DNA of 63,243 nucleotides, filler included, from Octopus bimaculoides (GCF_001194135.2; 5 parts of 4 records of this genome joined end to end with filler, not necessarily neighbours in it); one strand, 5' to 3'. Shown: positions 12,997 through 28,835, counted from the first letter of the whole stretch. Translations and numbers: made by a program. Notes: generated by a model from the sequence alone, not told the origin.

Positions 12997-13092
12997 ACCC
13001 TATACCCATGAGTTTCTCCAGTAATGATCAAATAAATCAATTAATTAGTCAATCAATTGATTAATTAACCATCCATGGTTCATCAGTAGAGT
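12997..13092 (-). ncRNA. Type I hammerhead ribozyme, intact core
   Basis: Stem I ACUCUA/UAGGGU; CUGAUGA; long stem II of about 25 bp; GAAA; stem III ACU-CAUG-GGU; GUA triplet. Confidence 0.8.
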
Positions 13093-13542
13093 CACTCGAA
13101 AATGCATAATTATGAGACTATAATATGTTCCGAAAAATATGAGGTAAAATACATGTGCACTTAGTTCCATCTTTATACATCAAGAATTCAAATCAAATAT
13201 CCTCAAGCACTGTGCCAAGTCAGAATAGTACAGCAGTGAATGAATTCAATAGTGTAGTACCTGGCCAGAGAATCAAAATATTTAACTTTATAGATACAGG
13301 GTAAAAAGTATTTAAAAATTATTATTTTTACCAGTGGTCAGCAAGTGTAATAAAAGTCAGAAGACAGAAATATTTCTATATAATAGAGTATAAAAACTTA
13401 TACACTGAGAGAAGACCACCATGTGGAATTCTTACATGCTGAAAAGGGCAGTGAAAACCCAAACTCCGAAAAGAAAGATTCTTCTTTAAGACACATTGCT
13501 TATAAGTGAACAGGATATCTAAATGAATAAAAGTCTCAGTTA

Positions 13543-13638
13543 ACCCTATACCCATGAATTTCTCTATTAATGATCAAATAAATCAATTAATTAGTCAATC
13601 AATTGATTAATTAACCATCCCTTGTTCATTAGTAGTGT
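13543..13638 (-). ncRNA. Type I hammerhead, decayed paralogue (core CUAAUGA)
   Basis: Same position in repeat copy 2, with G-to-A in the core and GAAAU. Confidence 0.65.
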
Positions 13639-14529
13639 TGCTGGAAAATGCATAAATATGAAACTGTATGTACTGAAAAACATGATGTAAAACACATGCA
13701 CACTTAATTCCATCCTTATACATCAAGAGTTCAAATCAAATATCCTCAAACACCGTGCCAAGTCAGAATAGTACAGCAGTTAACTGAGACTTTTATTCAT
13801 TTAGATATCCTGCTTGCTTACAAGCAACATGCCTTAAAGAAGAATCTTTCTTTATGTGGTTTAGGTTGTGACTGCCCCTTTCAGCATGTAAGAATTCCAC
13901 TTAGTGGTCTTCTCACCGTGTATAAATTTTTATACTCTATTATATAGAAATATTTATGTCTTCTGGCTTTTATTACACATGCTGACCACTGGTAAAAATT
14001 ATTATTTTTTAAATAATATTTACCCTGTATTTACACACACACACACTTTCATTTTATTCTTTCTATTTAGTCCATTTTTTTATGCTTACCCTTTCTGATA
14101 CAAGCCCTTATTTCCTTTCCCAAATGAAGGATAACATATTTTGCTGATATCATTGATCTAAAAAATGTAAACAAGCATGTGTGCACACACACACATTCAC
14201 ACACACATATACATTTATGTGTGTGTGTGTGTATAATTAAAAAGTAATGTAATAATACATTACGGAGGATATATCATAAACAATTAATAATTATTTATGA
14301 ATATACCAATGGTCAAACATGTTATCATAAAATACATAGAACAAGAGTGTTTATAATTATGAACAAGTCACAATTATAACTAAGAGGGTTTTAAAAACCT
14401 TTACATGTTTAGAAATAGCAGTCAAAAACCACTATAAAGTCACTATTATCACTCATATTATATCTCCTCACAATAAATGCTGTCTGTGGGCAACATGACA
14501 TAAAATCCACAACTTAAAAGTAAAAGGTC

Positions 14530-14595
14530 TATACTCTATTGCAGTTTCGATGTTGGGAACCTATTAAGGGTCCCATTCGTCTCTTCAGGAGAATA
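14530..14595 (-). ncRNA. Type I hammerhead, lightly decayed
   Basis: UAUUCUC-CUGAAGA-GACG AA UGGGA CC..GG U UCCCA A CAUC-GAAAC UGCA AUA-GAGUAUA. Confidence 0.72.
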
Positions 14596-15003
14596 TTCCT
14601 ATAGACAGAAATTGATACAAGACCGGCAAGACTTCCTTTTGTACTCCGCCATCCCCCTTTTTAATTTTTTTTTCTACTCAAACCCCCGTTTTCAGCTACG
14701 GAGAATATAAATCTGCAAAAAAATTGGCAAAATTTGGCATTTTCAAATTACCCACACCCACCCTTTCCCTTCCCTAATTTCTTCATTTTTTTAAAAACTT
14801 TTTTTCAGAATTTTTTTTTTCAAAATATGTGGGAAAATACAGCGATTTGTCTTGGCCTGTTTACATTCAAGTACTAGAATGTATACTGAGAGATTGTCTT
14901 GGCCCGTTTACCTTCAGACAGTTGATTTCTGTAGTTAGTATCAGTGTATTTTGGTGATTTAAATGAGAGTTTTGACTGTTATTTTCAGCAAGTAGACATA
15001 CAT

Positions 15004-15354
15004 AGGCGCAGGAGTAGCTGTGTAGTAAGTAGCTTGCTTACCAACCACATGGTTCTGGGTTCAGTCCCACTGCGTGGCATCTTGGGCAAGTGTCTTCTAC
15101 TATAGCCTCGGGCCGACCAAAGCCTTGTGAGTGGATTTGGTAGACGGAAACTGAAAGAAGACTGTCGTATATATGTATATATATATGTATATATATATGT
15201 ATGTGTGTGTGTGTTTGTGTGTCTGTGTTTGTCCTCCTAGCATTGCTTGACAACCGATGCTGGTGTGCTTATGTCCCCGTCACTTAGCGGTTCGGCAAAA
15301 GAGACCGATAGAATAAGTACTAGGCTTACAAAGAATAAGTCCTGGGGTCGATTT
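15004..15354 (+). mobile_element. tRNA-derived SINE family A with internal (TA)n(TG)n, 3' end in a gap
   Basis: Head GGCGCAGGAGTAGCTGTGTAGT...GGGTTCAGTCCC; CORE-like TTGGGCAAGTGTCTT. Confidence 0.9.
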
Positions 15355-16373
15355 NNNNNNNNNNNNNNNNNNNNNNNNNNNNNNNNNNNNNNNNNNNNNN
15401 NNNNNNNNNNNNNNNNNNNNNNNNNNNNNNNNNNNNNNNNNNNNNNNNNNNNNNNNNNNNNNNNNNNNNNNNNNNNNNNNNNNNNNNNNNNNNNNNNNNN
15501 NNNNNNNNNNNNNNNNNNNNNNNNNNNNNNNNNNNNNNNNNNNNNNNNNNNNNNNNNNNNNNNNNNNNNNNNNNNNNNNNNNNNNNNNNNNNNNNNNNNN
15601 NNNNNNNNNNNNNNNNNNNNNNNNNNNNNNNNNNNNNNNNNNNNNNNNNNNNNNNNNNNNNNNNNNNNNNNNNNNNNNNNNNNNNNNNNNNNNNNNNNNN
15701 NNNNNNNNNNNNNNNNNNNNNNNNNNNNNNNNNNNNNNNNNNNNNNNNNNNNNNNNNNNNNNNNNNNNNNNNNNNNNNNNNNNNNNNNNNNNNNNNNNNN
15801 NNNNNNNNNNNNNNNNNNNNNNNNNNNNNNNNNNNNNNNNNNNNNNNNNNNNNNNNNNNNNNNNNNNNNNNNNNNNNNNNNNNNNNNNNNNNNNNNNNNN
15901 NNNNNNNNNNNNNNNNNNNNNNNNNNNNNNNNNNNNNNNNNNNNNNNNNNNNNNNNNNNNNNNNNNNNNNNNNNNNNNNNNNNNNNNNNNNNNNNNNNNN
16001 NNNNNNNNNNNNNNNNNNNNNNNNNNNNNNNNNNNNNNNNNNNNNNNNNNNNNNNNNNNNNNNNNNNNNNNNNNNNNNNNNNNNNNNNNNNNNNNNNNNN
16101 NNNNNNNNNNNNNNNNNNNNNNNNNNNNNNNNNNNNNNNNNNNNNNNNNNNNNNNNNNNNNNNNNNNNNNNNNNNNNNNNNNNNNNNNNNNNNNNNNNNN
16201 NNNNNNNNNNNNNNNNNNNNNNNNNNNNNNNNNNNNNNNNNNNNNNNNNNNNNNNNNNNNNNNNNNNNNNNNNNNNNNNNNNNNNNNNAAATTTATAATC
16301 CATAAAATCTATAAAATATTAGATTAAAAATTTAATTCAGTTTAGTAAATTTATAAAAACGAAAGTGAATAAT

Positions 16374-16479
16374 AGACTACACGCGTTTCGTGGCCACATA
16401 AAAGTGGAAAGGATCTGGGCAATTTACAATAAATCGATCAAGATAAGTTCCACTCAGAATGAGGACACTCTTCAGGTCT
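16374..16479 (-). ncRNA. Type I hammerhead with long stem II (PLE pLTR type)
   Basis: AGAC-CUGAAGA-GUGUCC...GGCCAC-GAAAC GCGU GUA-GUCU. Confidence 0.8.
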
Positions 16480-16992
16480 TATAAATTCAAAAAAACGTAT
16501 CCTAATATTTAAAAATGCAATAAAATAAAATAGGAAAAAGTAGAAATAACTGTACATTTAAGCAATTATTAGTACAATACATAAAATGTCAAGGTTTTAT
16601 AATAATAATCATTTGTCAAGTTAAAGGCATAGTTTGTTTAATGAAGAAATACTTTCTGTAGATTAAGAATAGGAAAACATATAAAGAGATAGTGTTATTA
16701 ACTATTAAATGAATTCGGACGTTCAACAATATTAATGAAAAGAACAACATCACTTATCTTATCGAAGAGTCTTTGTTGACTGTAGTATTATCCATGAAGC
16801 ATAGAATTTATACGATGTGTATCACGTGACAAAGTGGCTTTTATTCGTGACCACAAATATTAAACTTTCCATGTAGAATCAAAATATGTAAAACACGTAA
16901 CAATATGGCGTTATAAGGAGAAGAGGGAAGAAAAACTTATTAAATGAACAAAGTGATGAAGTATGTATATAGACGGGGAACCAAACAATAGT

Positions 16993-27750: not shown

Positions 27751-27984
27751 AATAATAATAACAATAATAATGACAACAACAATAAAATGATTCATTAGGG
27801 TCATTATATGTATATCTGAATTTTATTCCAGAAAAAAACACATATACCGAGATGCAATTAAAAAAAAGCCCGCCTTTAATATAGATATATAGAGATAAAC
27901 AATCTTCTATGTACTAAGCCGGATACATAAGGTGTTCGTTTTGGTATGTTGAATCTTTTGTTTATTTTTATGCATTTTGACCAT

Positions 27985-28047
27985 ACTATACTGATGATCA
28001 GAAGTTACATATTGTTGTAATAACTGTGAAATCATTCGATATATAGT
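27985..28047 (+). ncRNA. Type I hammerhead, intact core, AUA triplet
   Basis: ACUAUA-CUGAUGA-stem II (9 of 12 pairs)-GAAA-UC auuc GAU-A-UAUAGU. Confidence 0.75.
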
Positions 28048-28122
28048 TCAGTCTGTTTTTAAGAGGCCAGTTTTGAGAGTTGCATTTCCTTGTCGCTACT
28101 GACACCTGCTGGGTTCGGCTGC

Positions 28123-28164
28123 TCTGCATTGACAAGGGGCAATACTCCGAAACTAGTCTGCAGA
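28123..28164 (+). ncRNA. Minimal type I hammerhead, core decayed (UUGACAA)
   Basis: UCUGCA-UUGACAA-GGGG caaua CUCC-GAAACUAGUC-UGCAGA; palindrome ACUAGU. Confidence 0.7.
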
Positions 28165-28399
28165 TGCCAAATCAGCGAGGTGAAGTTGCTGACCTCCCCT
28201 GTTCGAAGGTTATAAAGGACACAGGTTCGTGTGTCACATAGCTAGCTAGAGGCGATGGCCTCTTGGAGCTAATCAATGGCAGCATTCGTCCTATTTTTTT
28301 GGACTGCCATGTTGACTTGGCGATAACTATTAATATATATATATATATATATATANNNNNNNNNNNNNNNNNNNNNNNNNNNNNNNNNNNNNNNNNNNN

Positions 28400-28411
28400 T
28401 TAATTAATTAA
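28400..28411. other. TTAATTAATTAA scaffolding spacer inside an N gap (also 49891, 56024, 61202)
   Basis: Identical 12-mer embedded in N runs four times; encodes stops in all six frames. Confidence 0.9.
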
Positions 28412-28448
28412 NNNNNNNNNNNNNNNNNNNNNNNNNNNNNNNNNNNNN

Positions 28449-28745
28449 NNNNNNNCATCTTATTACATAAATAAGATTTTCTGAGGCACAAGTAAAGTTA
28501 GATTTAACTTTGAATTTGTGTCCCTCTTTGAAGAGGAATTCTGAACCTTCTAGAATGTTTGGGCATATTGCACAATTTGGTCGACCACATTTGTTTACTT
28601 TCGCATCTGTTGTTTCGGAAAGTAATTTTGCCTTTGTGAGGATCTTTTTCAGTGATTTTGGTTGTTTGTGGCTTTTGATGATTTTGTGTGTGTGTAAAAG
28701 TTCCTTCAATTTGGGGTCCTTATGTAGCATTGGTATGTTTTGACC
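28449..28745 (-). mobile_element. Penelope-like element: linker with CCCC finger and start of GIY-YIG
   Basis: KIIKSHKQPKSLKKILTKAK..KCGRPNCAICPNI..FTCASENLIYVIR. Confidence 0.85.
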
Positions 28746-28796
28746 GCTAAATCTACGAGTTTTTTAATTCTCTTTTTGTTTATTTCATCGTGTTTC

Positions 28797-28835
28797 TCTT
28801 TCTGATTGAAGAGCGTAGGCTCAAAACGTAGAAGA
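28797..28835 (+). ncRNA. Degenerate minimal hammerhead in an inverted pLTR upstream of the PLE fragment
   Basis: UCUUU-CUGAUUGA-A-GAGC guag GCUC-AAAAC-GUA-GAAGA; the G of GAAA is mutated. Confidence 0.55.

Follow-up and report, generated by a model that had tools for sequence, protein, structure and literature searches.

Why should some eleven hammerhead ribozyme motifs, distributed over both strands, be crowded into 16 kb of one octopus locus? The locus (positions 12,997 to 28,835) belongs to a 63,243-nt window of Octopus bimaculoides, the window being the whole stretch of DNA that was analysed. It is AT-rich animal DNA rich in short interspersed elements (SINEs), fragments of long interspersed elements (LINEs), microsatellites and assembly gaps, and the named relative of one window-encoded protein is an Octopus bimaculoides protein (91% identity). 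The original prediction attributed the motifs to several unrelated families of Penelope-like elements (PLEs) gathered at an insertion hotspot. Our results indicate that the cluster is very probably a nest of about 10 independent 5'-truncated PLE insertions, from which the hammerhead-bearing 3' ends are left and whose copies are decaying. Motifs are named here by their starting position.

All 11 proposed motifs could be parsed as type I hammerheads, on the strands given and with starts within 2 nt of those proposed. The cores, proposed at all 11 positions, are intact in nine: 12997, 14530, 16374, 21415, 22401 and 24335 on the minus strand, and 23600, 27985 and 28123 on the plus strand, the last being a U3-A8 variant. 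The other two are broken, 13543 by G5A and 28797 by one extra base in the first box together with G12A, changes which we take to inactivate the hammerhead core. Stems I and II pair in all nine intact motifs, 12997 and 27985 being mismatched at the stem II base, and self-cleavage after H17 is a predicted capacity of these motifs. The best preserved is 23600, with a 13-bp stem II and an exact 8-nt palindrome. Stem III had been described as a palindrome that differs from copy to copy; this is exact in 4 of the 11 (23600, 24335, 28123 and 28797), whereas the rest are imperfect, being wholly self-complementary through G.U pairs in three (12997, 13543 and 16374), odd in length with one central mismatch in 22401, and paired at 6/8 positions in 14530 and 21415 and at 6/10 in 27985.

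Recognition of these motifs relied on a type I hammerhead descriptor, tuned after the motifs had been seen, which recovered 3/11 in its strictest version, 6/11 in its scored form and 9/11 with relaxed stem thresholds; shuffle and decoy controls were run with the relaxed version. Nine exact-core matches score at least 8 (range 9.8-21.1) between 12,900 and 28,900 (14,877 non-N nt), compared with a mean of 0.11 (maximum 3) in 500 local dinucleotide shuffles, as expected from the original prediction. Permuted decoy cores (n=200) on the real sequence gave a mean of 0.07 matches (maximum 1), and the reversed sequence gave no exact-core match to the descriptor. When stem III is excluded from the score, it is wholly self-complementary in 6 of the 9 matches against 22 of 140 shuffled candidates (15.7%; P 8e-4).

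The motifs and their surroundings resolve into the following pieces, among which are open reading frames (ORFs), 3' untranslated regions (UTRs) and one miniature inverted-repeat transposable element (MITE):

12860..14033, minus strand: element A, 1.7 units in head-to-tail order, each 546 nt as measured between cut sites, without an ORF; hammerheads at 12995-13094 (intact core, A.A at the stem II base) and 13541-13640 (G5A); inverted piece at 13779-14033, with its start 4 nt beyond the cut site and (CA)n at its end.
14236..14600, minus strand, boundaries approximate: short 3' end; its hammerhead, 14530-14595, has an intact core and a 15.2-16.2 mismatch.
16289..17050, minus strand, putative upper boundary: AT-rich piece with hammerhead 16374-16479 (intact core), its tail entering a 934-N gap.
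20505..20545, minus strand: the 23600 element's tail, copied in inverted orientation and 97.6% identical to 23729-23769.
20654..21196, plus strand: Hydra-type PLE GIY-YIG endonuclease remnant with a CxCX5C linker and without CCHH.
21198..22235, minus strand, putative boundaries: nested 3' end whose hammerhead (21413-21533) keeps an intact core and pairs 6/8 in stem III.
22236..23288, minus strand: 5'-truncated PLE of a high-copy family, with GIY-YIG at 22802-23286 (CX4CX2C linker, CCHH-type motifs), 3' UTR, hammerhead 22401-22441 (intact core, extra base after A9) and a 169-nt tail.
23289..23810, plus strand: 3' UTR, hammerhead 23600-23669 and a 145-nt tail ending in (TA)n.
24231..26460, minus strand: Hydra-type PLE remnant with an N/T-rich low-complexity region, linker, CxCX5C GIY-YIG at 25133-26107, 3' UTR, hammerhead 24335-24385 (intact core, two stem mismatches) and a tail ending in (TA)n.
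24858..25124: MITE whose inverted ends are 94 nt long, with telomere-like hexamer repeats inside both arms and a target duplication of 9 bp.
27985..28047, plus strand: hammerhead with an intact core, U.U at the stem II base and stem III 6/10.
28085..28332, plus strand, 5' boundary approximate: short high-copy element with hammerhead 28123-28164 (U3-A8, exact 6-nt palindrome) and a tail ending in (TA)n.
28458..28763, minus strand: Neptune-type PLE remnant with a CX4CX2C finger and the start of GIY-YIG, its 3' end lying in the gap 28356-28455.
28765..28915, plus strand: piece with the broken hammerhead 28797, ending in a TA/CA tract.

The proposed PLE origin is supported by three kinds of evidence, namely remnants of GIY-YIG endonucleases, inverted and partial-tandem pieces, and microsatellites downstream of the motifs. 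Four PLE GIY-YIG remnants were found in the cluster by tblastn with 58 proteins, at 20768-21121 on the plus strand and at 22802-23286, 25133-26107 and 28458-28742 on the minus strand. Such remnants lie upstream, in the sense direction, of 22401 and 24335, and probably also of 23600, where the joining of the pieces is deduced from their arrangement; another stands head-to-head with 28797. Two remnants are Hydra-type, the CxCX5C linker without CCHH that distinguishes the Hydra clade being present at 20768-20989 and 25431-25544, and two carry a Neptune-type finger (CX2-5CxxC), at 28458-28742, the rest of which lies in the gap, and at 22927-23286, where the remnant at 22802-23286 may belong to Neptune or to Nematis. 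The endonuclease with a WFNPP-type motif was also considered as Naiad; this was rejected in favour of Hydra following Craig et al. (PMC8557442).

None of the five frames searched for the four endonuclease pieces gave a significant Pfam match, and the pieces were identified through their relatives instead. A word-based protein search with the Hydra piece gave no match, and a full HMMER search with the same piece gave 49 relatives. The remnant at 20654-21196 is 39% identical to P0018 (E 4e-14), a full-length relative of the Hydra-type remnants whose reverse transcriptase (RT) carries RWK and DKT motifs; that at 28458-28742 is 77% identical to P0002, which has an N-terminal RT and a GIY-YIG domain; and that at 22802-23286 matches P0010, whose nearest Atlas clusters are PLE-type proteins with helix-turn-helix and GIY-YIG domains. 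The minus-strand Hydra-type endonuclease at 25700-26460 is preceded by more than 200 N/T/K-rich residues in place of the RT thumb, and its relative P0013 (56%) shares this layout; the piece is possibly an endonuclease-only PLE derivative.

The architecture of the pieces points in the same direction. Partial tandems and inverted 5'-truncated copies are present at 12860-14033 and between 20505-20545 and 23729-23769, and a microsatellite or gap follows within 350 nt downstream of 9 of 10 cut sites (one of them an assembly gap), compared with 50% of random positions (P 0.011). The 14236-14600 piece ends at a CA/TG tract about 300 nt downstream of its hammerhead, the 24335 element ends in (TA)n at 24230, a gap, together with the (TA)n tract of 20,000-20,421, borders the 20505-20545 copy, and a single (TA)n tract separates the 28123 element from the Neptune-type element, which faces it. 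Inverted and partial-tandem structures, as well as (TA)n targeting, have been described for PLEs (Craig et al., 2021, PMC8557442). The 28765-28915 piece is likely an inverted 5'-truncated copy of the Neptune-type element, an assignment deduced from their arrangement, with the sense partner placed in the gap.

Further evidence was obtained from reads and contigs of 4 of 24 listed runs, matched at 90% likeness to 20504-28355, an interval outside which motifs 12997, 13543, 14530, 16374 and 28797 lie. Other copies run on into (TA)n at the 22236 end and run on upstream at 23288, which is the truncation point of the 22401 element. The plus-strand Hydra piece ends abruptly at 21196, and an opposite-strand joint (21547/21900) is found in other copies. 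As an inverted copy of its tail lies at the 5' side, 23289-23810 is likely the 3' end of the 20654-21196 body, and the minus-strand elements bearing 21415 and 22401 would then be nested inside this Hydra/23600 element. A 65-nt RTE-LINE fragment (20543-20607) is found at the joint of the inverted PLE tail and the PLE body, and was possibly captured by template switching. The MITE at 24858-25124 was inserted later into the end of the Hydra-type ORF, other copies being without it; it has a high summed depth in DNA contigs and, judged by the length of its target duplication, is presumably Mutator-like. Among the 40 read variants listed, out of 450, three fall in hammerhead stems and all three improve pairing (24382, A.A to U-A; 24371, C.A to U-A; 28146, U.G to C-G), in 13/13 to 40/41 of the covering RNA reads. 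Because other copies repair stem pairing, the fold is taken to persist in these families and to be eroding in the copies at the locus.

The motifs had been assigned to unrelated families. Several families are indeed present, but the wording was too strong, since some motifs are related. Motifs 12997 and 13543 are two units of one 546-nt tandem (340/384 columns identical, 89%), and 16374, 21415 and 23600 form one hammerhead sub-type by their core-flanking sequence, although their flanks are only weakly alike (alignment scores of 35-36, the null distribution having its 99th percentile at 33). Alignment further pairs 22401 with a near-intact motif at 7143 (score 52), and 28123 with another at 58732 (score 56), the 28085-28332 element itself being related to the element at 58732. 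The differences of the 21415 stem III from the 23600 palindrome resemble CpG decay; stem III of 21415 pairs 6/8 with itself and 8/8 with that of 16374, a cross-pairing that is likely a by-product of complementary CpG decay. Altogether, about 8-10 families and 10 insertion events are represented in the cluster.

Several results weigh against a nest of PLE insertions. No coding remnant accompanies 12997, 13543, 14530, 16374, 21415, 27985 or the short 28123 element, no ORF having been found upstream of 27985, and the PLE origin of these seven is for that reason read from architecture. No PLE RT was detected in 12.7-29 kb by tblastn with P0002, P0008, P0009 and P0018, and the carriers are for this reason regarded as truncated remnants of PLE families and not as intact PLEs. 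No target duplications were seen for the PLE pieces, the order of nesting is a deduction, and scans of metagenome contigs returned no relatives of the 23600-type motif or of P0002. The proposed Rfam confirmation did not materialize, an outcome that the original prediction had named as one that would refute it, and the motifs are assigned to no Rfam family: scans of the window gave no hammerhead at the gathering score, nor among 64 matches at E<=10, which were nearly all microRNA models on (TA)n tracts; the miss is likely due to the long stem II insertions and the short stem III. For several motifs the hammerhead fold is not the minimum-energy fold in single-strand folding, which yields the hammerhead stems for some. 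Finally, an additional base following A9 is regarded as conserved among minimal hammerheads and, with the G10.1-C11.1 pair, as typical of those of PLEs (PMC4209133); this base is present in only 2 of the 11 motifs and the pair in 4 of the 9 intact cores, and published Hydra motifs likewise vary.

A nest of truncated PLEs could have been formed as follows. The GIY-YIG nuclease of each family would nick (TA)n or AT-rich DNA, and the RT would copy the element RNA from its 3' end and usually stop early, an early stop that would lose the RT gene and let the hammerhead survive with a tail of 65-300 nt. Inverted copies and opposite-facing insertions would place motifs on both strands, and earlier insertions with their (TA)n tails likely attracted later ones. 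PLEs tend to insert into or beside earlier PLEs (review, PMC6765202), and this preference therefore offers a ready mechanism for the cluster. Cleavage in the parent families likely proceeds through dimers that form by way of the palindromic stem III, while at this locus the hammerheads likely do little or nothing.

As to the hotspot, what holds of the claim is that motifs are more closely spaced in the cluster than elsewhere in the window: scan tests give P 0.001 for 10 of 12 events in the span and P 0.009 for 8 of 10, and the remaining 43,877 non-N nt hold no exact-core match scoring at least 8 and two one-change matches. It is possible, although we consider it the lesser chance, that these PLE remnants merely occupy the upper tail of a PLE-rich genome, with no hotspot mechanism at work. 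PLEs make up 6.83% of the O. vulgaris genome, in 190 families (PMC13282606), two near-intact motifs occur in the 43.9 kb elsewhere, the window was chosen for this very feature, and about 70 such windows per 2.8 Gb would be expected at the upper 95% limit of the rest-of-window rate; the point estimate is 0.009 windows, however, the scan within the window is significant, and several families look low-copy, with summed contig depths of 806 and 1,358 against 74,507 and 135,700, depth not being equivalent to copy number. Somewhat more doubtful is the proposal that some motifs, chiefly those of the 546-nt tandem and of the short 28123/58732 family, belong to non-autonomous retrozyme-like elements, which would produce circular RNA and rely on PLE proteins. 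The 546-nt spacing of the cut sites, in a repeat that runs seamlessly head to tail and has no ORF, would suit such elements, as would the short high-copy element at 28085-28332 with RNA reads from its other copies, and a preprint (Li et al., 2026, 10.64898/2026.07.22.740005) derives animal retrozymes from the pseudo-long terminal repeats (pLTRs) of PLEs; against this, only 1.7 units are present with the second core broken, self-pairing of the unit is weak (fold z -1.8; 5 of 100 shuffles equally stable), and the same layout is that of a standard PLE partial tandem with an inverted copy.

The original prediction also held that any read-through transcript would meet self-cleaving motifs on both strands, and in its strongest form this would make the cluster a functional array, kept as a terminator or RNA-processing block that cuts transcripts of either strand. 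We regard such an array as very improbable. Motifs on both strands, nine intact cores and the stem III pairing of 16374 with 21415 (8/8) and of 12997 with 13543 (10/10) speak for it, and three contigs of a presumed RNA run are identical to the locus. Set against these are the two broken cores, one of which is that of 13543, the stems that have decayed relative to other copies, and the scarcity of pairs able to dimerise, 12997/13543 and 16374/21415 being the only same-strand pairs with matching stems I and III; since such minimal hammerheads depend on a second copy whose stems I and III match their own, read-through cutting is not supported. In vitro, monomers of minimal PLE hammerheads were inactive and dimers had low activity (PMC4209133), dimer cleavage was reported by Lunse et al. 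(via review PMC6765202), and 8 of 9 published Xenopus retrozyme dimers showed no cleavage. RNA reads at least 99% alike to the locus number 17 of 1,732 and 7 of 1,426 in two runs (0.32x and 0.13x), most matching reads being other copies at 90-95% that fall equally on both strands, in libraries that look unstranded. Low-level transcription of the locus may occur, and a working cleavage array is not supported. Least probable of all, to the point of being negligible, is that the motifs are chance matches in AT-rich repetitive DNA: the lack of an Rfam match and the tuning of the descriptor after the fact would favour chance, and Perreault et al. warn that the hammerhead motif arises by chance in large data sets, but the controls gave 0-3 matches, palindromes are enriched though unscored, family variants repair pairing and motifs adjoin PLE endonucleases, although 27985 and 14530 are individually weak. 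Chance, one giant element and a conserved two-strand terminator were rejected.

The nest of PLE insertions also offers a lead on hammerhead function, namely that PLE hammerheads cut in vivo and that the cut ends define what the RT copies, a record of which would be kept in the nest; at present we consider this unlikely. In element A, the start of the inverted piece lies 4 nt past a cut site (rough chance level 0.09, with the tolerance chosen afterwards). An RNA joint from 22465 to 22409, a 57-nt jump back supported by 5 and 11 reads, lies 4 nt before the 22401 cut; it is absent from two contig sets, its rough chance level is 0.08-0.12 with the tolerance again chosen afterwards, and 21 further rows of the listing may hold letters between its two sides. 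In run X22, 6 of about 14 molecules have 28156 as their first position, the 3' product predicted for 28123 beginning 3 nt later (chance 0.02-0.03, tolerance chosen afterwards), a pile-up not seen in run X21, and a similar pile-up of read starts at 24449 corresponds to no cut site. The offsets of the three ends from cut sites are thus 3-4 nt and none is exact, and among four inversion junctions only one is at a cut site. Read pile-ups were rejected as signs of cleavage, given that the one at 28156 is 3 nt off and confined to one run, that the one at 24449 is off-site and that the libraries look unstranded. If the lead were true and such offsets piled up genome-wide, the role of PLE hammerheads would become testable from sequence alone.

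Other features of the window were recorded alongside. Two near-intact hammerheads lie outside the cluster on the plus strand, at 58732-58776 (U4C core, exact 8-nt palindrome, kin of 28123) and at 7143-7183 (G8A core, kin of 22401), and a Neptune-type GIY-YIG remnant (Pfam GIY-YIG E 1e-5), downstream of which the descriptor picks up no hammerhead, is found at 56274-56729 on the same strand. Inside the cluster, a decayed RTE-type LINE (16993-19980) keeps remnants of an apurinic (AP) endonuclease and an RT, with an inverted 5' piece at 16993-17070, and a direct repeat of about 280 nt and 68% identity (26464-26742 and 27366-27635), without a protein match, lies upstream of hammerhead 27985. One SINE-like repeat with an internal microsatellite occurs at 15002-15354, 31148-31499, 33937-34439, 35201-35341 and 39938-40281, its copies at most 93% identical. 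A mariner-type transposase piece (10882-11277, minus strand, E 4.5e-24), a LINE RT piece (58027-58512, plus strand, E 1.3e-12) and a DUF7083 remnant (12222-12680, plus strand, E 2e-4, below the cut-off) were also detected. Exact duplications flank 10-N gaps at 22862-22981 and about 226-330; because RNA reads skip 65 nt at 22862, these duplications are likely assembly artefacts.

Among known systems, terminons are multi-hammerhead units of rotifer Athena elements in which the hammerheads are co-oriented. The cluster shares with them many hammerheads in a short span, and differs in having motifs on both strands and from different families, and a telomere-like repeat that lies inside a MITE; a Terminon was rejected, as motifs occupy both strands and no PLE RT was found by tblastn with Hydra and Neptune queries (no Athena query being included). 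Element A resembles non-LTR retrozymes (PMC7229834; 10.64898/2026.07.22.740005) in being a head-to-tail repeat that encodes no protein and holds a single type I hammerhead in each unit, and departs from them in its 546-nt unit, its broken second core and its weak self-pairing; recognition as a retrozyme calls for two or more consecutive units in which every hammerhead is complete, and the 1.7 units and the G5A change of element A fall short of this. With Neptune-type PLEs the locus shares a C-terminal GIY-YIG after a CX2-5CxxC finger and the close match to P0002, only 95-120 residues remaining here. With the Hydra clade (PMC8557442) it shares the CxCX5C linker without CCHH, a hammerhead soon after the ORF, the (TA)n target and an inverted 5'-truncated copy, whereas the 25133-26460 copy has a long N/T-rich stretch at the expected RT thumb. 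The stems and stem III of Hydra-1_Obim of Octopus bimaculoides (File S2), compared by eye, match no motif of the cluster, and in the literature consulted no octopus hammerhead was found beyond this one Hydra element.

The closest counterpart is the class of minimal type I hammerheads carried in the pLTRs of metazoan PLEs, including U3-A8 forms in Schistosoma PLEs (Cervera and de la Pena, 2014, PMC4209133). Shared with them are the type I order, a short stem I, a small palindromic stem III and the U3-A8 variant, as well as the occurrence of many families per genome, mostly as solitary copies from truncated PLEs, and of opposite-strand pairs 100-700 bp apart. The octopus motifs differ in that several have stem II insertions of 43-92 nt and palindromes of 8-10 nt, in the rarity of the extra base after A9, and in a local density of 1 per 1.7 kb, far above the thousands per genome published. 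The function of hammerheads in endonuclease-bearing (EN+) PLEs is still described as unclear (Craig et al., 2021, PMC8557442), and the high-copy families with U3-A8 or U4C cores and long palindromes, together with the many inversion junctions, would provide material for testing genome-wide whether junctions cluster at the cut site. Taken together, the locus is likely mobile DNA of a described kind, a class known since 2014, and not a new system. To this class it contributes about 8-10 octopus hammerhead families that Rfam does not recognise, and it shows PLEs of at least two clades nested within 16 kb.

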